Assembly (NCBI GenBank): GCA_963692995.1
Contig: OY843611.1
Location: 422,748-486,747 of the forward strand
Reading direction: 5' to 3'
DNA length: 64,000 nt
DNA from: Dehalococcoidia bacterium
GTDB lineage: Bacteria; Chloroflexota; Dehalococcoidia; Lucifugimonadales; UBA3495
Below, in pieces: positions 7,905 to 61,434 of the stretch; the first letter of the stretch is position 1, and each line of letters begins with the position of its first letter. The notes beneath the pieces are model-generated. The model ran no database searches and was not told the DNA's origin. It saw only the letters and a program-made list of their open reading frames with translations. The translations under genes were made by a program, and so were the position numbers.

Positions 7905-8681
7905 ATGGATTTGACCCTTAACGGAAAGGTTGCGATGATCACCGGCGGCAGCCGCGGCCTGGGACGGCAGTGCGCCCTGGCCCTGGGGCGCGAGGGCTGC
8001 GCCGTGGCGATCTGCGGACGCGACGGCGATCAGGTAAAGCGTACCGCGGATGAACTCGCCGGGCTGGGCAGCAAGGCCAGCGGCAGCCGGGCCGACGTGA
8101 CTAACCCCGATGACGCCGCCCGCTTCCTGGAGGAAACCACCGACGCTCTGGGCGCGCCCGACATCCTGGTGAACAACGTGGGCGGCCGGCGTGGCTCGAC
8201 GCTCTTCGACGAAACCTCCATGGAACAGTTCATGGAAGGGCTGGAAGTGAATCTCATCTCGGCGGTGCGGATGACCAAGCTGGCGCTGCCCCATATGCAG
8301 GCCCAGGGCTGGGGCCGGGTCATCAACATCGCGTCCATTTACGGACGGGAGCACGGCGGCTCGGTGGACTATATGACCGGCAAGGCGGGGATGATCGCCT
8401 TCTCCAAGCACCTGGCCCTGCAACTGGCGCAGACGGGCGTGCTGGTCAACTGCGTGGCTCCCGGCAGCATCGACTTCCCCGGCAGCAGCTGGGACCGCTT
8501 CCAGCAGAACAACACGCCCGAGGTGGTGTCCGAGTTTATCGACCGCAACCTGCCCATGGGCAGGTTTGGCTGGCCGGAACCCATCGGCGAAACCGTCGCT
8601 TTCCTGGCATCGGACCGGGCCGGCCTGATCACCGGCGCGTGCATCAACGTGGACGGCGGACAGTCCAAGTCGCTGTTTTAG
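7905..8681 (+). CDS. SDR family oxidoreductase
   Basis: AGGGAGG lies upstream of ATG 7905. N-terminus MDLTLNGKVAMITGGSRGLG carries the TGxxxGxG Rossmann motif. Classical SDR length of 258 aa. Confidence 0.9.
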   Translation: MDLTLNGKVAMITGGSRGLGRQCALALGREGCAVAICGRDGDQVKRTADELAGLGSKASGSRADVTNPDDAARFLEETTDALGAPDILVNNVGGRRGSTLFDETSMEQFMEGLEVNLISAVRMTKLALPHMQAQGWGRVINIASIYGREHGGSVDYMTGKAGMIAFSKHLALQLAQTGVLVNCVAPGSIDFPGSSWDRFQQNNTPEVVSEFIDRNLPMGRFGWPEPIGETVAFLASDRAGLITGACINVDGGQSKSLF

Positions 8682-25711: not shown

Positions 25712-27508
25712 ATGGCATTGGGACTTAATAGCTATCGCCCCCTGGTTGGCGGCGTGAGCCACATGATTAGCACCGGCCATTATCTCGCCACGGCGGCCGG
25801 CTACCGTATCCTGGAGCAGGGCGGCAACGCCATTGACGCCGGCGTGGCGGCCGGCATCGTCATCAACGTAACGCTGCCCCAGTACACCAGCTTCGGCGGC
25901 GTCGCTCCCATCATCATTCACCACGCCGCCAGCGGCGATACCAAGGAGATCAGCGGCCTGGGGCGTTGGCCGGCCGAAGCGTCCATCGACTACTTCCGCC
26001 GCGAGCATAACGGCGATATGCCCCATGGGGTGATGCGCACCGTCACTCCCGCCGCCCCCGATGCCTGGCTCACCGCGCTGAGCCGCTACGGCACCATGAC
26101 CTTCGAGCAGGTAGTTACGCCGGCCCTGGAGCTGGCCGGCGGCGGCTTCCCCATACCGGCCACGCTGCACCGCGCCCTGGTGGCCGGTCAAAGATCGAGC
26201 AGCGGAGACAACATCATCCTGGACGAGGGCGACACCAGCCAGTGGACCAGCACCATGCAGATTTTCTACCCCAAGGGCCGGGCCCTGGGTGTGGGCGACC
26301 TGCTGGTGCAGTCTGATCTGGCCCGCACTTTCCAGCGCATGATCGACGCCGAGCGCGCCGCCGCCGGACAAGGTCGAGAGTCGGCCATCAAGGCGGCACG
26401 GGACTTCTTTTACAAGGGTGATATTGCCGAGGAGATGGTCGCCTTCCACCGCTCCCAGGGCGGTTGGCTGTCCATGCGTGATCTGGCCGACTTCTCGGTG
26501 GGCGTGGACGACCCGCCGATGATCGACTACAAAGGGCCGAACTCTTCTGAAATCGCCGTGTACGCCTGCGGCCCGTGGTGTCAGGGGCCGATGAACCTGC
26601 ACGCCCTGCGCATTCTGGAAGGCTGCGACTTGCAAAGCATGGGGCATAATTCCGCCGACTACATCCACACCGTGCTGGAGGCGCTGAAGCTGGCCTTCGC
26701 GGATCGCCACGCCTACTACGGCGACCCCGACTTTGTGAATGTGCCCATGGACGGCCTGCTGTCCCGGGAGTACGCTGATCTCCGTCGCCGCGAGATCGAT
26801 CCCCACCGCGCCAACCCCGAAATGCCCGACGCCGGCGACCCGTGGCCCCACCAGGTCGGCCTCGACTCCCGTGACCAATCGCGAGGGGCTGGCAAGCCGG
26901 AGGCGGTGGCCGGCCCGCTGTCCGCCGACACGTCTTACATTTGTGCCGTGGACCGCTGGGGCAACGCCTTCTCCGCCACACCCAGCGACGGCTTTGGCGG
27001 AGCGCCCATCATCCCCGGCCTGGGCTTCATGGCGTCGGCCCGGGGCGCCCAGAACTGGCTGGACGAGGACCATCCCAGCAGCCTGGCTCCCGGCAAACGT
27101 CCGCGCTTGACGCCCAACCCGGCCCTGGCCTTCAAGGACGGCCGGCCCTGGCTGCCCTTTGGCACGCCGGGCGGCGACGTCCAGCCTCAGTCCATGGTGC
27201 AGTTGTTCCTCAACGTCGCCGAGTTCGGCATGAACGTGCAGCAGGCCATCGAGCAGCCTCGCGCCTCCACCTGGAGCTTCCCCAACTCCTTCTGGCCCCA
27301 CGCCTACCGGCCCGGCCTGGTGGGCGTCGAGTCGCGCATCGACCCGTCGGTGGTGGACGAACTGCGCAAGCGCGGCCACGACGTGGACGTGTGGAACGAA
27401 TGGACCCCGCGCATGGGCTCCCTCTGCGCCATCGAGATCGACCGCGAGCGCGGCGCCTTGTTCGGCGGCGCGGACCTGCGGCGCGACGGGTACGCCATGG
27501 GCCGGTAA
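25712..27508 (+). CDS. gamma-glutamyltransferase family protein
   Basis: GGAGG upstream of ATG 25712. HMISTGHYLATAAGYRILEQGGNAIDAGVAAG and DTSYICAVDRWGNAFSATPS (autoprocessing Thr region) are GGT-like. Confidence 0.85.
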   Translation: MALGLNSYRPLVGGVSHMISTGHYLATAAGYRILEQGGNAIDAGVAAGIVINVTLPQYTSFGGVAPIIIHHAASGDTKEISGLGRWPAEASIDYFRREHNGDMPHGVMRTVTPAAPDAWLTALSRYGTMTFEQVVTPALELAGGGFPIPATLHRALVAGQRSSSGDNIILDEGDTSQWTSTMQIFYPKGRALGVGDLLVQSDLARTFQRMIDAERAAAGQGRESAIKAARDFFYKGDIAEEMVAFHRSQGGWLSMRDLADFSVGVDDPPMIDYKGPNSSEIAVYACGPWCQGPMNLHALRILEGCDLQSMGHNSADYIHTVLEALKLAFADRHAYYGDPDFVNVPMDGLLSREYADLRRREIDPHRANPEMPDAGDPWPHQVGLDSRDQSRGAGKPEAVAGPLSADTSYICAVDRWGNAFSATPSDGFGGAPIIPGLGFMASARGAQNWLDEDHPSSLAPGKRPRLTPNPALAFKDGRPWLPFGTPGGDVQPQSMVQLFLNVAEFGMNVQQAIEQPRASTWSFPNSFWPHAYRPGLVGVESRIDPSVVDELRKRGHDVDVWNEWTPRMGSLCAIEIDRERGALFGGADLRRDGYAMGR

Positions 27509-27533
27509 AACGCATCAGCGCAGCGTCATCGGG

Positions 27534-27564
27534 AGCGACGCCAGCATTTTTTGCTGGCGTCGCT
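27534..27564. terminator. hairpin between convergent genes
   Basis: Perfect 12-bp stem AGCGACGCCAGC / GCTGGCGTCGCT with a 7-nt loop (ATTTTTT). Confidence 0.55.
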
Positions 27565-27612
27565 TGCAATGTGTCACCCCGGATAATCAGCGGTTGCCGG
27601 CGACAGAACCCG

Positions 27613-28482
27613 TCAACTTTGCGCCAGTGGCCACCTCGACTGCCGCTGCCGGCGTTCGCTCGGCACGCGACAGACGCTCAGCTCCACCTGCCCGGCGGCG
27701 GCGCGGGTTTGCTGGATCGCCTCCATGAAGTTGGAGGTGAGGATGCCGGCGGGGAGCGCGAAAAGGCCGATGCCCAACAGGGCAATGAAGCCGGCAATGA
27801 CGCGCCCCACGAGCGTCCCCGGCACCACTTCCAGCGACGGCAATGTGGTCAAAATCACTACCGACGCCCAGAGGGACTCGCCGATGTTGCCGAACTGCTC
27901 GTGGTTGCCGTTGGGCAGGTTGGTCTCGGCTGAGTGCATCAGAAAGCCCGCCGCCAGCCAGAACACGCTGAGGGTCACCAGGACGCTGATCAGCTGGGAC
28001 GCCGATCGCAGCATGACGCGACCCATCAATCTCATCGCCGGAAAACGCCTCCCGGTCATAATCAGCCGCGAGATCAGGCGAAAGATCGGCAGCACCTCCA
28101 CCTCGCCAAATATGATCATCACCACCAGCGTGGGCCAGATGGCGATGAAGTCGATGATGGCCGCCGCGTTGGTGGTAGCGTAGCGCAGCCGCGCTTTCCA
28201 CCCACCTTGCCGGTAGTTGCGGTGCCAGACGATGCACCACAACCGGATGAGATATTCGGCGGCGAATACGCTGATGAAGAAGAACTCCAGCTTGGTGTTG
28301 CTGACCGCCAGATTTACCGCGCTGAACAGCACCAGCCCAAAGATGGTGAAGTCCACAATTCGCGCCGCGCCGCCGCTGTCCGCCTCCAGCACGTGAAACA
28401 CGGCGTGCTGGAGGCGGAGGTAAGGATTGGCTTCGGGCAACCGGCATTGCAGCAGGGAAAACCCGCCGGAAAACATCCCCAT
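27613..28482 (-). CDS. voltage-gated-type (6TM) ion transport protein with non-canonical pore signature
   Basis: S4-like segment FRLISRLIMTGRRF. The pore helix and S6 align to Kv-type channels (SLWASVVILTT....VVPGTLVGRVIAGFIALLGIGLFALPAGIL), but TVGYGD is replaced by TLPSLE. Confidence 0.8.
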   Translation of the reverse strand: MGMFSGGFSLLQCRLPEANPYLRLQHAVFHVLEADSGGAARIVDFTIFGLVLFSAVNLAVSNTKLEFFFISVFAAEYLIRLWCIVWHRNYRQGGWKARLRYATTNAAAIIDFIAIWPTLVVMIIFGEVEVLPIFRLISRLIMTGRRFPAMRLMGRVMLRSASQLISVLVTLSVFWLAAGFLMHSAETNLPNGNHEQFGNIGESLWASVVILTTLPSLEVVPGTLVGRVIAGFIALLGIGLFALPAGILTSNFMEAIQQTRAAAGQVELSVCRVPSERRQRQSRWPLAQS

Positions 28483-28620
28483 TTGCTATCGCTGGATGCT
28501 TGCTATCGGTAGATGCTTGCTGGTCATTGCCGGCGGCGCGAGGCAAGCTCGACGCTGTGCGGACCGCCGTTGCAGTCGCGGGATTGCGGCGGCGCTACAC
28601 TTCCGGCAATGACCGAGTGG

Positions 28621-29367
28621 TTACATCGCAGTCCGGCCGCCATCGATGACCAATTCGCTGCCCGTCATGAAGGAAGCTTCGTCGGACGCCAGGAACAGCG
28701 CGCCGTATGCGATGTCCTCGGCCTGCCCCAGGCGACCCAGCGGGGTGCGGTTCAGCCGGTCCTCCCGTCCGCCGGCGGCCAGCAGGTCGGCGGTCATGTC
28801 AGTCTCGATGGTGCCGGGATGCACGCTGTTGCAGCGGATGCCGTCGGCGGCGTGCTGGATGGCGGTAGATTTGGTGAACAGGCGCACCGCGCCTTTTGAC
28901 GCGGTGTAGGCCGAGGAGATGTGGTTGCCCACCAGTCCGGCCACGCTGGAAATGTTGACGATGGAGCCGCCGCCGTTGCGCCTAAGCTCGGGAATGGCTG
29001 CCTTGGTGCCGAGGAACACGCCCTTGGCGTTCACTGCCATGGTGGTGTCCCAGTTGTCCGTGGTGGTGTTTTCCACCGTCTCCGGCATATAGACGCCGGC
29101 GTTGTTCACCAGGATATCCAGCTTGCCGAACTGCTCCACCGTGGCGGCGACGGCAGCTCTCCAGGACTGCTCGTCGGTCACGTCCAGGTGGACGTACCGG
29201 CACTCGCCGCCCAACTCGTTGATTTCGGCTTCCACCTGCCGTCCCAGCTCGTCCCGCAGGTCGCCGATGACCACCTTGCAACCCTCCCGGGAGAACATTC
29301 GCGCTTCAGTGGCGCCCATCCCTCGGGCGCCGCCGCTGATGAGAGCCACCTTGTTTTCCAGTCGCAT
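28621..29367 (-). CDS. SDR family oxidoreductase (SDR-B, left flank of the Uma2 array)
   Basis: Start at ATG 29367: MRLENKVALISGGARGMGATEARMF (TGxxxGxG). C-terminus FMTGSELVIDGGRTAM. Confidence 0.9.
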   Translation of the reverse strand: MRLENKVALISGGARGMGATEARMFSREGCKVVIGDLRDELGRQVEAEINELGGECRYVHLDVTDEQSWRAAVAATVEQFGKLDILVNNAGVYMPETVENTTTDNWDTTMAVNAKGVFLGTKAAIPELRRNGGGSIVNISSVAGLVGNHISSAYTASKGAVRLFTKSTAIQHAADGIRCNSVHPGTIETDMTADLLAAGGREDRLNRTPLGRLGQAEDIAYGALFLASDEASFMTGSELVIDGGRTAM

Positions 29368-29384
29368 TCTGAAATCACCTCGCT

Positions 29385-30143
29385 TTATGGTTGATCCGGC
29401 AAGCGTTGCAACTGCTCGCGGAGCCGGGCGTTTTCGGATTCTAGGGCCAGGAGAGCGTTTTCGGCGGCCTGCCGGGCAGCGGCTTCGGTCTGCCGGGCGT
29501 CCTCGGCTTCCTGGTGGGTCAGGAGCCATTGTCCGGTTGCCGGGTCGTACAACCGCAGCTCCAGGCCGGGCAGCACGCAGATGTCCAGCCCTAATACGGC
29601 GCTGTGTCCGCGCAAGATGCCGGCAGCGTCATTGTACAGCGGCTGCTCCCGGTAGATGCCATCGTCCAGCCGTTCTAGCGCCAGGGCCGGAGTGAAATAG
29701 CTGCCGGTAGGGTCAAAGCGGACGTATTCCTGAACGCCCATTGCAGCATAGATGGGCCTTTTTTCAGTAATGTCGCGCTGCCAAGTGCTTCGGGAGGCTA
29801 CCTCCATCACAAAGTTCGGGGCCCGGCCTTCCCGCCAGACCAGCCAGGAATCGCGGCGATGGTTGCCGGTGGCGCCAAAGACGGCAAAGACGTCCGGCGC
29901 GACCCTTACGTCCGCGCGGTTTATCCGGTAATAGACCAGCATATCGCCGGCAATATAAACATCGTCCCGGTTGCGGTAGCGGACACGGAGGGCGGAAACG
30001 GTGTTGGTGAGGGGAACGTACTGGTGGTCGGATTCGGCCATAGGCTCACCATCGGAGGACGGGTAGCAGATGTTGGGGTCATCCACTTCGTCGTCGCCAT
30101 GGGAAAAGTGGGGGATGGCCGATTCCGCGGACTTGGAGACCAT
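29385..30143 (-). CDS. Uma2 (DUF820) family endonuclease, array copy 1 (1 heptad unit)
   Basis: CYPSSDGEPMAESDHQYV...APDVFAVFG...PNFVMEVASRSTWQRDITEKRPIYAAMGVQEYVRFDP is the canonical Uma2 core. C-terminal coiled coil ...ENALLALESENARLREQLQRL. GGGAG lies 8 nt upstream of the ATG. Confidence 0.85.
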   Translation of the reverse strand: MVSKSAESAIPHFSHGDDEVDDPNICYPSSDGEPMAESDHQYVPLTNTVSALRVRYRNRDDVYIAGDMLVYYRINRADVRVAPDVFAVFGATGNHRRDSWLVWREGRAPNFVMEVASRSTWQRDITEKRPIYAAMGVQEYVRFDPTGSYFTPALALERLDDGIYREQPLYNDAAGILRGHSAVLGLDICVLPGLELRLYDPATGQWLLTHQEAEDARQTEAAARQAAENALLALESENARLREQLQRLPDQP

Positions 30144-30298
30144 GGGCGTTGCTCCCGAGCTGTGGCGGACGTAGGCTGTGGCGCGCGTAGATTGCGGCGG
30201 GGGTAGATTGGTGAAACTTACTGCGCGAACAGCCCGCCGTCAATCACCAACTCGCTGCCGGTCATAGTTATCCAGTCGCATTCTGAAATCACTGCGCT

Positions 30299-31120
30299 TT
30301 ATGGTTGGTCCGGCAAGCGTTGCAACTGCTCGCGGAGTCGGGCGTTTTCGGCTTCTAAGGCCAGGAGAGCGTTTTCGGCAACCTGCCGGGCAGCGGCTTC
30401 GGCCTGCCGGGCAGCGGCTTCGGCCTGCCGGGCAACGGCTTCGGCCTGCCGGGCAACGGCTTCGGCCTGCCGGGCGTCCTCGGCTTCCTGGTGGGTCAGG
30501 AGCCATTGTCCGGTTGCCGGGTCGTACAACCGCAGCTCCAGGCCGGGCAGCACGCAGATGTCCAGCCCTAATACGGCGCTGTGGCCGCGCAAGATGCCGG
30601 CAGCGTCATTGTACAGGGGCTGCTCCCGGTAGATGCCATCGTCCAGCCGTTCTAGCGCCAGGGCCGGAGTGAAATAGCTGCCGGTAGGGTCAAAGCGGAC
30701 GTATTCCTGGACGCCCATTGCAGCATAGATGGGCCTTTTTTCGGTAATGTCGCGCTGCCAAGTGCTTCGGGGGGCTACCTCCATCACAAAGTTCGGGGCC
30801 CGGCCTTCCCGCCAGACCAGCCAGGAATCGCGGCGATGGTTGCCGGTGGCGCCAAAGACGGCAAAGACGTCCGGCGCGACCCTTACGTCCGCGCGGTTTA
30901 TCCGGTAATAGACCAGCATATCGCCGGCAATATAAACATCGTCCCGGTTGCGGTAGCGGACACGGAGGGCGGAAACGGTGTTGGTGAGGGGAACGTACTG
31001 GTGGTCGGATTCGGCCATAGGCTCACCATCGGAGGACGGGTAGCAGATGTTGGGGTCATCCACTTCGTCGTCGCCATGGGAAAAGTGGGGGATGGCCGAT
31101 TCCGCGGACTTGGAGACCAT
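30299..31120 (-). CDS. Uma2 family endonuclease, array copy 2 (4 heptad units)
   Basis: Same protein as copy 1 with EVAPRSTW, and AEAVARQ AEAVARQ AEAAARQ AEAAARQ inserted. Confidence 0.85.
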   Translation of the reverse strand: MVSKSAESAIPHFSHGDDEVDDPNICYPSSDGEPMAESDHQYVPLTNTVSALRVRYRNRDDVYIAGDMLVYYRINRADVRVAPDVFAVFGATGNHRRDSWLVWREGRAPNFVMEVAPRSTWQRDITEKRPIYAAMGVQEYVRFDPTGSYFTPALALERLDDGIYREQPLYNDAAGILRGHSAVLGLDICVLPGLELRLYDPATGQWLLTHQEAEDARQAEAVARQAEAVARQAEAAARQAEAAARQVAENALLALEAENARLREQLQRLPDQP

Positions 31121-31275
31121 GGGCGTTGCTCCCGAGCTGTGGCGGACGTAGGCTGTGGCGCGCGTAGATTGCGGCGGGGGTAGATTGGTGAAACTTACTG
31201 CGCGAACAGCCCGCCGTCAATCACCAACTCGCTGCCGGTCATGGTTATCCAGTCGCATTCTGAAATCACCGCGCT

Positions 31276-32118
31276 TTATGGTTGGTCCGGCAAGCGTTGC
31301 AACTGCTCGCGGAGCCGGGCGTTTTCGGCTTCTAAGGCCAGGAGAGCGTTTTCGGCGGCCTGCCGGGCAATGGCTTCGGCCTGCCGGGCAGCGGCTTCGG
31401 CCTGCCGGGCAGCGGCTTCGGCCTGCCGGGCAATGGCTTCGGCCTGCCGGGCAATGGCTTCGGCTTGTCGGGCGTCCTCGGCTTCCTGGTGGGTCAGCAG
31501 CCATTGTCCGGTTGCCGGGTCGTACAACCGCAGCTCCAGGCCGGGCAGCACGCAGATGTCCAGCCCTAATACGGCGCTGTGTCCGCGCAAGATGCCGGCA
31601 GCGTCATTGTACAGGGGCTGCTCCCGGTAGATGCCATCGTCCAGCCGTTCTAGCGCCAGGGCCGGAGTGAAATAGCTGCCGGTAGGGTCAAAGCGGACGT
31701 ATTCCTGGACGCCCATTGCAGCATAGATGGGCCTTTTTTCGGTAATGTCGCGCTGCCAAGTGCTTCTGGAGGCTACCTCCATCACAAAGTTCGGCGCTCG
31801 GCCTTCCCGCCAGACCAGCCAGGAATCGCGGCGATGGTTGCCGGTGGCGCCAAAGACGGCAAAGACGTCCGGCGCGACCCTTACGTCCGCGCGGTTTATC
31901 CGGTAATAGACCAGCATATCGCCGGCAATATAAACATCGTCCCGGTTGCGGTAGCGGACACGGAGGGCGGAAACGGTGTTGGTGAGGGGAACGTACTGGT
32001 GGTCGGATTCGGCCATAGGCTCACCATCGGAGGACGGGTAGCAGATGTTGGGGTCATCCACTTCGTCGTCGCCATGGGAAAAGTGGGGGATGGCCGATTC
32101 CGCGGACTTGGAGACCAT
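31276..32118 (-). CDS. Uma2 family endonuclease, array copy 3 (5 heptad units)
   Basis: Start taken at ATG 32118 (MVSKSAES...), homologous to the other copies. Five AEA(I/A)ARQ units. Confidence 0.85.
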   Translation of the reverse strand: MVSKSAESAIPHFSHGDDEVDDPNICYPSSDGEPMAESDHQYVPLTNTVSALRVRYRNRDDVYIAGDMLVYYRINRADVRVAPDVFAVFGATGNHRRDSWLVWREGRAPNFVMEVASRSTWQRDITEKRPIYAAMGVQEYVRFDPTGSYFTPALALERLDDGIYREQPLYNDAAGILRGHSAVLGLDICVLPGLELRLYDPATGQWLLTHQEAEDARQAEAIARQAEAIARQAEAAARQAEAAARQAEAIARQAAENALLALEAENARLREQLQRLPDQP

Positions 32119-32257
32119 GGGCGTTGCTCCCGAGCTGTGGCGGACGTAGGCTGTGGCGGGGGTAGATTGGTGAAACTTACTGCGCGAACAGCCCGCCGTC
32201 AATCACCAACTCGCTGCCGGTCATGGTTATCCAGTCGCATTCTGAAATCACCTCGCT

Positions 32258-32995
32258 TTATGGTTGATCCGGCAAGCGTTGCAACTGCTCGCGGAGCCGG
32301 GCGTTTTCGGCTTCTAAGGCCAGCAGAGCGTTTTCGGCAGACTGTCGGGCGTCCTCGGCTTCCTGGTGGGTCAGGAGCCATTGTCCGGTTGCCGGGTCGT
32401 ACAACCGCAGCTCCAGGCCCGGCAGCACGCAGATGTCCAGCCCTAATACGGCGCTGTGGCCGCGCAAGATGCCGGCAGCGTCATTGTACAGCGGCTGCTC
32501 CCGGTAGATTCCATCGTCCAGCCGTTCTAGCGCCAGGGCCGGAGTGAAATAGCTCCCGGTGGGGTCAAAGCGGACGTATTCCTGGACGCCCATTGCAGCA
32601 TAGATGGGCCTTTTTTCGGTAATGTCGCGCTGCCAAGTGCTTCGGGAGGCTACCTCCATCACAAAGTTCGGGGCCCGGCCTTCCCGCCAGACCAGCCAGG
32701 AATCGCGGCGATGGTTGCCGGTGGCGCCAAAGACGGCAAAGACGTCCGGCGCGACCCGAAGGTCCGCGCGGTTTATCCGGTAATAGACCAGCATATCGCC
32801 GGCAATATAAACATCGTCCCGGTTGCGGTAGCGGACACGGAGGGCGGAAACGGTGTTGGTGAGGGGAACGTACTGGTGGTCGGATTCGGCCATAGGCTCA
32901 CCATCGGAGGACGGGTAGCAGATGTTGGGGTCATCCACTTCGTCGTCGCCATGGGAAAAGTGGGGGATGGCCGATTCCGCGGACTTGGAGACCAT
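32258..32995 (-). CDS. Uma2 family endonuclease, array copy 4 (0 heptad units)
   Basis: Same core with RADLRV. EDARQ runs directly into SAENALLALEAEN. Confidence 0.85.
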   Translation of the reverse strand: MVSKSAESAIPHFSHGDDEVDDPNICYPSSDGEPMAESDHQYVPLTNTVSALRVRYRNRDDVYIAGDMLVYYRINRADLRVAPDVFAVFGATGNHRRDSWLVWREGRAPNFVMEVASRSTWQRDITEKRPIYAAMGVQEYVRFDPTGSYFTPALALERLDDGIYREQPLYNDAAGILRGHSAVLGLDICVLPGLELRLYDPATGQWLLTHQEAEDARQSAENALLALEAENARLREQLQRLPDQP

Positions 32996-33150
32996 GGGCG
33001 CTGCTCCCGAGCTGTGGCGGACGTAGGCTGTGGCGCGCGTAGATTGTGGCGGGGGTAGATTGGTGAAACTTACTGCGCGAACAGCCCGCCGTCAATCACC
33101 AACTCGCTGCCGGTCATGGTTATCCAGTCGCATTCTGAAATCACTGCGCT

Positions 33151-33930
33151 TTATGGTTGGTCCGGCAAGCGTTGCAACTGCTCGCGGAGTCGGGCGTTTT
33201 CGGCTTCTAAGGCCAGGAGAGCGTTTTCGGCGGCCTGCCGGGCAACGGCTTCGGCCTGCCGGGCAGCGGCTTCGGCCTGCCGGGCGTCCTCGGCCTCCTG
33301 GTGGGTCAGGAGCCATTGTCCGGTTGCCGGGTCGTACAACCGCAGCTCCAGGTCCGGCAGCACGCAGATGTCCAGCCCTAATACGGCGCTGTGGCCGCGC
33401 AAGATGCCGGCAGCGTCATTGTACAGTGGCTGCTCCCGGTAGATCCCATCGTCCAGCCGTTCTAGCGCCAGGGCCGGAGTGAAATAGCTGCCGGTAGGGT
33501 CAAAGCGGACGTATTCCTGGACGCCCATTGCAGCATAGATGGGCCTTTTTTCGGTAATGTCGCGTTGCCAAGTGCTTCGGGAGGCTACCTCCATCACAAA
33601 GTCCGGGGCCCGGCCTTCCCGCCAGACCAGCCAGGAATCGCGGCGATGGTTGCCGGTGGCGCCAAAGACGGCAAAGACGTCCGGCGCGACCCGAAGGTCC
33701 GCGCGGTTTATCCGGTAATAGACCAGCATATCGCCGGCAATATAAACATCGTTCCGGTTGCGGTAGCGGACACGGAGGGCGGAAACGGTGTTGGTGAGGG
33801 GAACGTACTGGTGGTCGGATTCGGCCATAGGCTCACCATCGGAGGACGGGTAGCAGATGTTGGGGTCATCCACTTCGTCGTCGCCATGGGAAAAGTGGGG
33901 GATGGCCGATTCCGCAGACTTGGAGACCAT
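33151..33930 (-). CDS. Uma2 family endonuclease, array copy 5 (2 heptad units)
   Basis: Same core with RNRND, RADLRV, RAPDF and LPDLE substitutions. AEAAARQ AEAVARQ. Confidence 0.85.
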   Translation of the reverse strand: MVSKSAESAIPHFSHGDDEVDDPNICYPSSDGEPMAESDHQYVPLTNTVSALRVRYRNRNDVYIAGDMLVYYRINRADLRVAPDVFAVFGATGNHRRDSWLVWREGRAPDFVMEVASRSTWQRDITEKRPIYAAMGVQEYVRFDPTGSYFTPALALERLDDGIYREQPLYNDAAGILRGHSAVLGLDICVLPDLELRLYDPATGQWLLTHQEAEDARQAEAAARQAEAVARQAAENALLALEAENARLREQLQRLPDQP

Positions 33931-34004
33931 GGGCGTTGCTCCCGAGCTGTGGCGGACGTAGGCTGTGGCGCGCGTAGATTGTGGCGGGGGTAGATTGGTG
34001 AAAC

Positions 34005-34757
34005 TTACTGCGCGAACAGCCCGCCGTCAATCACCAACTCGCTGCCGGTCATAAAGGACGACTCGTCCGACGCCAGGAACAGCGCTCCCCAGGCCACGTC
34101 TTCGGCCTGCCCGACGCGGCCGAGGGGAGTGCGGTCCAGCGACGCCTGGCGCGCCGCGTCGTCGCGCAGCAAGGTCGGCGTCGTCATGGGCGTCTCGATG
34201 ATGCCCGGATGCACCGAGTTGCAGCGAATGCCCTCGGCCGCGTACTGGATGGCAGTGGACTTGGTGAAAAGGCGCACCGCGCCCTTGGTGGCGCCGTAGG
34301 CGGGCGCCCGCCAGCTGCCGATGAGACCGGCCACGCTGGAGATGTTGACGATGGAGCCGCCGCCGGCCTTCCGCATCTCCGGCAGGGCCGCCTTGGTGCC
34401 CAGGAACACGCCTTTGGCGTTGATGTCGAAGATGTTGTCCCACAGCTCTTCGCTGGTATCCTCGATGCCCACTTGCCGATAGATTCCGGCGTTGTTCACC
34501 AGGATGTCCAGCTTGCCGAACCGCGCCACGGCGGTGTTGACGGCGGCGTTCCACTCGTCCTCGCTGGTGACGTCCAAGCGGACAAAGACGCACTCGCCTC
34601 CGGTCTCGTTGATCTCGGCCTCCAGCTGTCGGCCCGCTTCCTCTAGCACGTCGCCGATAACCACCTTGCAGCCTTCGCCGGCGAATAACCGCGCTTCAGC
34701 AGCCCCCTGCCCGCGCGAGCCGCCGCTAATCAGAGCAACCTTGTTTTCCAAACGCAT
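34005..34757 (-). CDS. SDR family oxidoreductase (SDR-A, right flank of the Uma2 array)
   Basis: Start at ATG 34757: MRLENKVALISGGSRGQGAAEARLF. C-terminus FMTGSELVIDGGLFAQ. Its last 48 nt are repeated at every array junction. Confidence 0.9.
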   Translation of the reverse strand: MRLENKVALISGGSRGQGAAEARLFAGEGCKVVIGDVLEEAGRQLEAEINETGGECVFVRLDVTSEDEWNAAVNTAVARFGKLDILVNNAGIYRQVGIEDTSEELWDNIFDINAKGVFLGTKAALPEMRKAGGGSIVNISSVAGLIGSWRAPAYGATKGAVRLFTKSTAIQYAAEGIRCNSVHPGIIETPMTTPTLLRDDAARQASLDRTPLGRVGQAEDVAWGALFLASDESSFMTGSELVIDGGLFAQ

Positions 34758-34894
34758 AGTGACACCTCGAACCTGAAGCAACATTTCTTGGGAACATCAG
34801 CCGGGAGTATGACTAATCGGCAGGCACGATTGTAACTCTGAAGGGAAGGGCGTCAAGAGATGTGATGGCGCTGTGTTCGGTTCAGAGGGTAGCG

Positions 34895-60669: not shown

Positions 60670-61434
60670 TTACATCGCGGTTCGTCCGCCATCCACCACG
60701 ACCTCGCTGCCGGTGACGAATGCCGCCTCATCCGATGCCAGGTAGATGACGGCGTAGGCGATGTCCTCCGACCGTCCGATGCGGCCTAGGGGCACACGTC
60801 GCATCTGTTCCGCATCGCTGAGGCCGCTGCCCCGGTTGGCTCGGGATTCGCGCAGCATCGGGGTGTCGATGGGGCCGGGGTGGACCGAGTTGCACCGGAT
60901 GCCCTCAGCGGCGTGCTGAATGGCGGTGGACTTGGTGAACAGCCGCACCGCGCCCTTGCTGCTGCTGTAGCCGGCCAGGTTGTAGTCGTTGCCCACCAAC
61001 CCGGCGGTGGAAGATATGTTGACGATGCTCCCGCCGCCCGCCGCCCGCAAGGCGGGCAGACTAGCCTTGGTGCCGAGAAACACGCCCTTGGCGTTCACAT
61101 CAAACAGCCGGTCCCATTCCGCAACGGTCATCTCCTCGATGCTGCGGCCCAGGACGATGCCGGCATTGTTGACCAGGACGTTCAGCTTGCCGTACTCGGA
61201 TACGGCGGCATTGACGGCGGACTGCCAGTCGTCTTCGTTGGTGACGTCCAGGTGAACATAGGTGGCCTGGCCGCCCAACTCCCGGATTTCGGCCTCAACG
61301 CGGCGGCCTTCGTCATCCAGAATGTCGCCAAAGACGACGGACGCGCCTTCCGCGGCGAACATTCGGGCTTCCACCGCGCCCTGTCCCCGGGCGCCGCCAC
61401 TGATCAAAGCAACCTTGCCGTCCAACCTGCCCAT
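60670..61434 (-). CDS. SDR family oxidoreductase
   Basis: MGRLDGKVALISGGARGQGAVEARMF. C-terminus FVTGSEVVVDGGRTAM. Paralog of the SDRs at 28.6 and 34.0 kb. Confidence 0.9.
   Translation of the reverse strand: MGRLDGKVALISGGARGQGAVEARMFAAEGASVVFGDILDDEGRRVEAEIRELGGQATYVHLDVTNEDDWQSAVNAAVSEYGKLNVLVNNAGIVLGRSIEEMTVAEWDRLFDVNAKGVFLGTKASLPALRAAGGGSIVNISSTAGLVGNDYNLAGYSSSKGAVRLFTKSTAIQHAAEGIRCNSVHPGPIDTPMLRESRANRGSGLSDAEQMRRVPLGRIGRSEDIAYAVIYLASDEAAFVTGSEVVVDGGRTAM

Follow-up and report, generated by a model that had tools for sequence, protein, structure and literature searches.

Whole-heptad length variation in the predicted C-terminal helix of a tandem array of Uma2 family genes from an uncultured Dehalococcoidia bacterium

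To our knowledge, Uma2 (PF05685; also known as COG4636) is among the largest families of predicted nucleases, and it has gone 20 years without a known function. The family is massively expanded in cyanobacteria, Chloroflexota and Deinococcota. In 2005 it was predicted to belong to the PD-(D/E)XK nucleases (PMC551604), and the literature on it describes tandem duplications, "cassettes of paralogous genes" and a suggested role as solo toxins (PMC551604; PMC2701414; PMC1274311; PMC3424549). In this family literature we found no demonstration of nuclease activity for any Uma2 member. Here we analyze a 64,000-nucleotide stretch of DNA (the window; positions 422,748 to 486,747 of contig OY843611.1) from an uncultured Dehalococcoidia bacterium (Chloroflexota). 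A chromosomal tandem array of five minus-strand Uma2 genes lies at 29.3–34.1 kb of this window, between two paralogous short-chain dehydrogenase genes (SDR1 and SDR2). Each of the five genes has a different number of copies of an in-frame 21-bp repeat in the part encoding its predicted helical C-terminal tail, and the same seven-residue stepping is found across a large clade of relatives.

The array shares a Pfam match, a PD-EXX-K signature and a fold with the Uma2/COG4636/DUF820 proteins described so far, which include cassettes in cyanobacteria and Thermus (PMC551604; PMC2701414; PMC1274311). The tail sets it apart. Described and solved Uma2 proteins are about 150–190 amino acids long and tail-free, whereas the proteins of the window and of a large clade around them carry a 37- to 100+-residue heptad helix plus zipper. 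Here the length follows 13+7n residues and is polymorphic between paralogues and between strains.

Short in-frame repeats that alter helical segments have precedents outside the family. In HsdS of the type I restriction-modification systems, EcoR124I and EcoR124II have 2 or 3 copies of a 12-bp, four-residue repeat in the helical central region, and this changes the target spacer. The likeness is an analogy of mechanism only: in both cases slippage or recombination of a short in-frame repeat alters a helical spacer in a nuclease-associated protein, but the proteins studied here have the Uma2 domain only, with no target-recognition domains and no methyltransferase or HsdR neighbors, and their unit is seven residues rather than four. 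A further parallel is with rigid helical spacers, namely the ER/K single alpha-helix domains and the engineered linkers of the type A(EAAAK)nA. Like them, the Uma2 tract is alanine-rich, has a single Glu(i)-Arg(i+4) pair in each unit, lacks a consistent hydrophobic a/d seam and is predicted to be a straight helix; as with rigid linkers, it would be a spacer whose length scales with repeat number. Unlike classical ER/K domains, it is richer in Ala and Gln, has a lower charge density and ends in a leucine zipper. In-frame variable-number tandem repeats (VNTRs) are also known in coiled-coil proteins such as streptococcal M protein and alpha-C, and length variants are known for Lpp and for injectisome rulers; all of these proteins are secreted or surface-exposed and experience immune or geometric selection. 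As in these proteins, helical repeat number in the Uma2 tails varies between strains with the frame intact. Unlike them, the Uma2 proteins are predicted cytoplasmic nucleases encoded in a multi-copy array in which each copy has its own length. In kind, the locus belongs with Uma2 cassettes and with in-frame helical VNTRs.

The repeat unit, CCTGCCGGGCA(G/A)(C/T)GGCTTCGG on the plus strand, is 21 bp long and encodes AEA(A/V/I)ARQ. It matches the window 12 times, against 0.00 matches expected from 100 dinucleotide-preserving shuffles, and Tandem Repeats Finder returned period-21 arrays with 93–98% matches and no indels. The five genes were delimited as open reading frames (ORFs) on the minus strand, and the units were located with a regular expression. 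Copy 1 (29385–30143, 252 aa) has one unit at 29468–29488; copy 2 (30299–31120, 273 aa) has four at 30382–30465, with V, V, A and A at the variable position; copy 3 (31276–32118, 280 aa) has five at 31359–31463 (I, I, A, A, I); copy 4 (32258–32995, 245 aa) has none; and copy 5 (33151–33930, 259 aa) has two at 33234–33275 (A, V). These matches agree exactly with the counts (1, 4, 5, 0 and 2) and positions proposed by an earlier sequence-only reading of this DNA. The five protein lengths differ by multiples of 7. In all copies a degenerate proto-unit, EAEDARQ, precedes the tract, and in copy 4 it is followed immediately by the sequence beyond the tract (...EAEDARQ|SAENALL...), so that EDARQ abuts SAENAL at 32331–32356 (E214–N222).

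As that reading had it, the repeats are in frame and heptad-sized, and they connect the PD-(D/E)XK core to a conserved terminal helix. Three of its other statements held in part. The AEA(A/V/I)ARQ consensus describes most units, but the single unit of copy 1 reads TEAAARQ rather than AEAAARQ because its first codon is ACC. The terminal helix, said to be invariant, is nearly so among the copies, with an A-to-S change in copy 1 (ALESENARL), and the residue directly after the tract varies among A, V and S. The copies were also said to differ mainly in tract length; their lengths do step by 7, but five further amino acid positions outside the tract vary (60, 79, 110, 117 and 193). That every copy has a different count is true, yet five independent draws from the family length distribution would all differ with P = 0.17, which is not significant. 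With a unit of 21 bp, no change in unit number shifts the frame, and each copy is an intact ORF; the array thus shows no on/off phase variation by frameshift. Near-perfect tandem DNA repeats, differing in number between closely related genomes as described below, make the tract a VNTR. Direct-repeat slippage or recombination is sufficient to explain its instability. Hairpin-driven instability was considered and rejected, since the five-unit tract as single-stranded DNA is no stabler than shuffled sequences (z = −0.55).

A second strain allowed the array to be compared between genomes. The 90%-identity protein cluster of the window comprises 10 sequences from two single-contig genomes, that of the window and L001 (ENA ERZ21742358). 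The L001 flanks are 98–99% identical to those of the window, and L001 has the same junction and likewise five Uma2 copies. Counted from the SDR2 side, the copies have 3, 4, 0, 5 and 1 units in L001 and 2, 0, 5, 4 and 1 in the window. The order of A, V and I within the tracts differs as well: the five-unit tract is IIAAI in the window versus VAVAA in L001, and the four-unit tract is VVAA versus AAAA. In both strains a five-unit copy follows a zero-unit copy, again from the SDR2 side, and the two last copies match almost completely. Otherwise, substitutions form a mosaic across the copies, the expected outcome of gene conversion and unequal exchange. Copy-by-copy orthology was therefore rejected as a basis for comparing the strains; counterparts can be named just for the last copy and for the adjacent [0-unit][5-unit] copies. 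Within the array of the window the copies are 97–99% identical and carry private, mostly synonymous substitutions. Across the ten copies of both strains, 27 synonymous and 12 non-synonymous variable codons were found outside the tract, which shows that purifying selection acts on these genes. Further strains were sought in JGI metagenome contigs with the amplicon junction and with a gene-specific 29-mer, and neither scan gave a match.

Length variation between genomes, as slippage or recombination on top of a gene amplification would produce, is thus seen between the window and L001, and also between two co-occurring strains of one other species from a single sample (L013 and L014), in which the first Uma2 copy is 277 and 263 aa long.

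The seven-residue stepping extends well beyond the array. In 129 close homologues (the 120 best homologues and the 9 other members of the window's cluster), we measured the distance from a core anchor, W-L-x-T-H-Q-E, to a zipper anchor, x-L-R-x-Q-L; 116 proteins could be scored. The distance is 13+7n residues (13, 20, 27 ... 83; n = 0–10; 6 mod 7) in 115 of these 116. Ten 90%-identity clusters follow the 13+7n rule in all scorable members, with protein lengths stepping by 7 (for example, 239/247/254/261/268/275 aa), and steps of seven residues separate near-identical proteins as well as co-occurring strains. More distant relatives were collected with a HMMER scan of 1.8 billion representatives, which yielded 5154 relatives, and the best 150 of these were used. 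Among them, 116 of the 135 full-length proteins have a tail rich in A/E/R/Q/K/D/L. Where tail repeats are clear, their period is 7, 14, 21 or 28 in 52 of 53 cases; shuffled tails gave none. The heptad stepping proposed for the array therefore holds across the clade and is stronger than had been claimed. By the same token, a survey of homologues for tail VNTRs, as the sequence-only reading had suggested, found heptad variation to be widespread and not special to the array, which is one case of a general property: free length with kept phase.

Many of these tails are too diverged for DNA-level slippage, and they show no non-heptad indels. We therefore infer selection on phase, beyond a mutational bias. 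Taken across the clade, the sequences point to selection acting on the phase of the tail and not on its length. We regard the clade-wide heptad rule as the main new result of this analysis. It is apparently undescribed; our literature search found no paper linking Uma2 to coiled-coil or repeat tails.

The core that precedes the tail is a recognizable Uma2 domain. Copies 1, 3 and 4 were scanned against Pfam and matched Uma2 with 58.6–59.7 bits (E about 1e-16) against a gathering score of 27; NCBIfam gave no family match. Among 64 homologues D84 never varies, conservation of E114 and of K128 reaches at least 90%, and all five copies have all three residues, which places them with the PD-EXX-K variant (D84/E114/K128). 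In the PD-EXX-K protein all3650 the corresponding residues are D83, E111 and K127; the Asp and the Glu come from strands 2 and 3, respectively, and the Lys has migrated to the helix that follows (PMC551604). K128 lies within a predicted helix (residues 121–135) of an AlphaFold2 (AF2) monomer model of copy 3, built with 63 homologues. Foldseek matched this model to 9y1l, 6okh, 1wdj and 3ot2 (probability 0.96–1.00), and a profile search of the PDB also matched 9y1l and 6okh; a single-protein sequence search of the PDB gave no match. The copies also match PDC-S03, a candidate defense family of PADLOC, weakly and in part (E = 1.2e-9; residues 74–168 against profile positions 90–180 of 207), and our literature search found no paper on PDC-S03.

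The AF2 model has a confident core followed by a single continuous helix at residues 210–278 (pLDDT 91–99). The tract is thus predicted to be helical, as the sequence-only reading had supposed; whether it is a coiled coil, as that reading also supposed, depends on the segment. The terminal zipper (ENALLALEAENARLREQLQRL) follows the GCN4-like pattern LxxLxxxNxxLxxxLxxL, in which the a and d positions of the last ~3 heptads are L, L, N, L, L and L, and N or I at the a position is conserved among homologues. When the zipper register is carried into the repeats, however, a is Arg, d is Glu and the variable A/V/I falls at f. An alternative register would put Ala at a and Ala, Val or Ile at d, and homologues often have D, E, T or G at that position. 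Each unit contains one E(i)-R(i+4) pair, and the tails are 19–35% Ala and 44–46% E/R/Q/D/K. The tail therefore has the heptad periodicity and the predicted helix of a coiled coil, but not hydrophobic a and d positions along the whole segment. With Arg and Glu at a and d and no canonical hydrophobic core, the repeat resembles an Ala-rich, salt-bridged and rigid single helix rather than a canonical coiled coil; the coiled-coil assignment stands for the last ~3 heptads and fails for the repeat units.

The origin of the array can be read from its junctions. All four, at 30144–30298, 31121–31275, 32119–32257 and 32996–33150 on the minus strand, were examined in sequence and have the same order: 17 nt after the Uma2 stop codon, the first ~15–17 nt of the SDR1 ORF (ATGCGACTGGATAAC), the final ~50 nt of the SDR2 ORF, and the SDR2-Uma2 intergenic region, which holds 16-bp repeats and a GGGAG ribosome-binding site. 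They share one common breakpoint, an SDR1'::'SDR2 fusion, and the last 50 nt of SDR2 are repeated in every amplicon. Because all junctions share this breakpoint, the array goes back to a single founding illegitimate duplication of a 0.9–1.0 kb unit, followed by expansion to five; the present amplicon units are 913–982 bp long. Each junction also creates a 13-codon mini-ORF, MRLDN(H/Y)DRQRVGD (30240–30281 and equivalents), which uses the copied start codon of SDR1, ribosome-binding context included, and reads the SDR2 3' fragment in another frame than that of SDR2. This mini-ORF could be translated and is probably a meaningless by-product.

The 16-bp tandem repeat (CGCCACAATCTACGCG-like, ~3 copies) lies directly upstream of the Uma2 ribosome-binding sites, at 33948–33997, 33013–33062, 31136–31187 and 30159–30210 on the minus strand. 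One 16-bp unit is missing upstream of copy 3 (in the junction 32119–32257), and likewise before the five-unit copy of strain L001. At the equivalent place in another species with a seven-copy array (L011), we observed a variable run of CCTAA/CCTAC pentamers. The 16-bp repeat is a second, non-coding VNTR and could tune the expression of single copies.

Synteny of SDR2, Uma2 and SDR1 (and the ion channel gene beyond) is kept in related uncultured Dehalococcoidia genomes, with one Uma2 copy at the site in L002 and L004, two in L003, L013 and L014, and seven in L011; L012 has SDR2 followed by two Uma2 copies and no SDR1. The tails in these species have 2 units, about 5, 3 and 0, 4 and 0, and, in L011, 0, 0, 1, 1, 1, 0 and 2. 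The inter-copy junctions of the other species are unlike those of the window, and none of them contains the SDR2 3' fragment. Amplification at the SDR2-Uma2-SDR1 site has therefore recurred independently. Tandem pairs elsewhere mostly combine a long and a short protein (268/239, 268/245, 254/245, 261/238, 277/249, 263/249 and 258/239 aa). Between species (L002–L004 versus the window), Uma2 is 69–74% identical at the amino acid level versus 89–95% for the flanking SDR genes; either Uma2 evolves 3–4 times faster than these SDRs, or paralogues have taken its place at this site.

Our explanation for the array is as follows. The first event was one illegitimate recombination, in which the 5' end of SDR1, downstream, was fused to the 3' end of its upstream paralogue SDR2; as the shared breakpoint shows, this created the ~0.9–1.0 kb amplicon. 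Unequal homologous recombination would then have expanded the amplicon to five copies, and gene conversion would have kept these 97–99% alike and mosaic. Each encoded protein appears to be built from a nuclease-like core and one C-terminal helix, which consists of EAEDARQ, n units of AEA(A/V/I)ARQ and a short zipper. Slippage or unequal exchange presumably gains and loses whole units faster than gene conversion homogenizes them, and n would therefore come to differ among copies and strains. Each unit would lengthen the helix by about 1.05 nm and rotate it by about −20 degrees; so small a rotation per heptad would account for the tolerance of whole-heptad changes and the intolerance of other indels. 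In the most likely arrangement, two chains are paired by the zipper, and the repeat forms a rigid, largely solvent-exposed arm that holds the nuclease heads at variable distance. In this array the arm would comprise 20–55 residues, or about 3.0–8.3 nm.

Taken as a whole, the reading in which an amplified Uma2 gene has a phase-constrained tail that grows and shrinks by slippage or recombination of 21-bp units is, in our judgment, probably correct. Its mutational part, slippage or recombination atop gene amplification, is well supported, and the putative role of the tail as a structural ruler is plausible. Several observations weigh against it. The exact counts in this assembly, and any per-cell heterogeneity, rest on assemblies. 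Asp110, part of the motif APDFVxEIxS, is shared by at least 90% of homologues and is also seen in two solved structures, 9y1l and 6okh, but codon 110 is Asn in copies 1–4 of the window (32666–32668 in copy 4) and Asp in copy 5, alone in the window, and in all five L001 copies; copy 2 in addition has Ser117 changed to Pro (30770–30772) at a position that is at least 90% conserved. Judging from these substitutions, some copies may not be fully functional. Phase conservation could in part reflect a mutational bias towards whole-unit indels. Zipper pairing, oligomeric state and nuclease activity are predictions, and the AF2 model is of a monomer. Finally, the counts 0, 1, 4 and 5 are common to both strains despite turnover in the tract interiors. 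Since counts are kept while interiors differ, particular lengths may be maintained, and this is not predicted by a length-neutral model.

This last observation would fit a selected series, in which the array is a set of nucleases with different arms whose near-identical zippers allow homo- and heterodimers with diversified spacing, for example in defense or in conflict with mobile elements. Neither strain repeats a length among its five copies, pairs of long and short copies are typical elsewhere, amplification recurred independently at the same site, and the copies hardly differ in their terminal zippers; the lower identity of Uma2 than of SDR between species and the weak PDC-S03 matches point the same way. 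However, an all-different set arises by random draws at P of about 0.17, the seven-copy array of L011 repeats lengths, the neighborhood is one of ordinary metabolism and transport with genome-typical G+C, and the PADLOC matches are partial and at the level of the domain. Dimerization, DNA binding and defense are hypothetical only, and we consider an adaptive length series unlikely. A tunable ruler in the full sense, in which zipper-paired arms of about 3 to 8 nm would set the spacing of the heads, the array would be a combinatorial series of homo- and heterodimers and slippage would make new spacings, possibly for defense or intragenomic conflict, strikes us as a doubtful proposition. At the other extreme, the tail might be dispensable and its unit numbers and periodicity by-products of slippage under no structural constraint. 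The range of 13 to 83 residues in homologues, the variation within 90%-identity clusters and the tail-free solved structures would all be compatible with such drift. It does not readily account for a phase that over 99% of sequences keep, including those in which heptads too diverged for slippage of the DNA form 14-, 21- or 28-residue super-repeats, nor for the conserved zipper with its a-position N or I, the tail composition kept in most of the distant full-length representatives or the purifying selection on the copies, and we think it has little chance of being right. One could also suppose that misassembly of a collapsed or heterogeneous repeat had produced the array or its counts, because five units of ~0.95 kb at 97–99% identity are hard for short reads and the counts come from assemblies rather than reads. 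But the second strain is an independent single contig with the same array, the same adjacent zero- and five-unit copies and an identical last copy; each copy of the window has private substitutions; every tract is in frame; and 7-aa stepping occurs in dozens of unrelated assemblies. Assembly error is thus a very remote explanation. The unit counts are not assembly noise, the outcome that would have spoken against the sequence-only reading, and comparison of the two genomes indicates that neither the array nor its unequal counts are an artifact.

The genes around the array are unexceptional. SDR1 (28621–29364, minus strand; Pfam adh_short_C2, E = 1.3e-67) lies directly downstream, its start codon 20 nt past the stop codon of copy 1 (17 nt in between). 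SDR2 (34005–34757, minus strand; adh_short_C2, E = 1.6e-67) lies upstream; its start (MRLENK) was taken from the gene call in L001, and it is ~70% identical to SDR1 at the amino acid level. Two additional SDR paralogues were observed in the window, at 60673–61428 (minus strand) and 7905–8660 (plus strand), one 63% identical to SDR1 and the other ~32% identical; judging from these sequences, the SDR family is multi-copy locally, independent of the Uma2 array. The neighbors of the array are the SDR genes, an ion channel, a gamma-glutamyltranspeptidase and a peptide ABC transporter, and there is no defense island. The possibility that the array is a foreign island or mobile element was rejected, as its G+C equals that of the surroundings and its neighbors are metabolic and syntenic across species.

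Each Uma2 copy has its own GGGAG ribosome-binding site. A scan for one promoter type, sigma-70-like, found no site between the Uma2 copies; upstream of SDR2, at 34829–34856, it found the only match on the minus strand in 28.5–35.2 kb, a consensus match alone. The Uma2 array and both SDR genes may, as a tentative suggestion from this layout, be co-transcribed. On the plus strand, a terminator-like stem-loop with a T-run (GCCCATTGCAGCATAGATGGGC CTTTTTTC) was observed antisense within each Uma2 copy (29736–29757, 30713–30734, 31711–31732, 32588–32609 and 33523–33544). The region has 7 such sites against 6.2 expected, a count at chance level, and the stem-loops are probably incidental. The cumulative GC skew has its minimum near 28 kb (at ~26000–30000 of the window), the skew being negative from 10 to 28 kb and positive from 30 kb on; this minimum could mark a replication origin or terminus, or be a mere effect of gene strand.

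If the length of the tail proves irrelevant, the array is a well-documented protein VNTR and no more; if the tunable ruler is true, slippage in the tail would serve to generate diversity within a nuclease family. The array gives a testable handle on whether arm length matters and whether the paralogues heterodimerize, and it offers a natural example of how a helical spacer evolves when its phase is constrained and its length is free. For the Uma2 family, the inferred order of head, rigid arm and zipper would be a first architectural clue to how its members are built.

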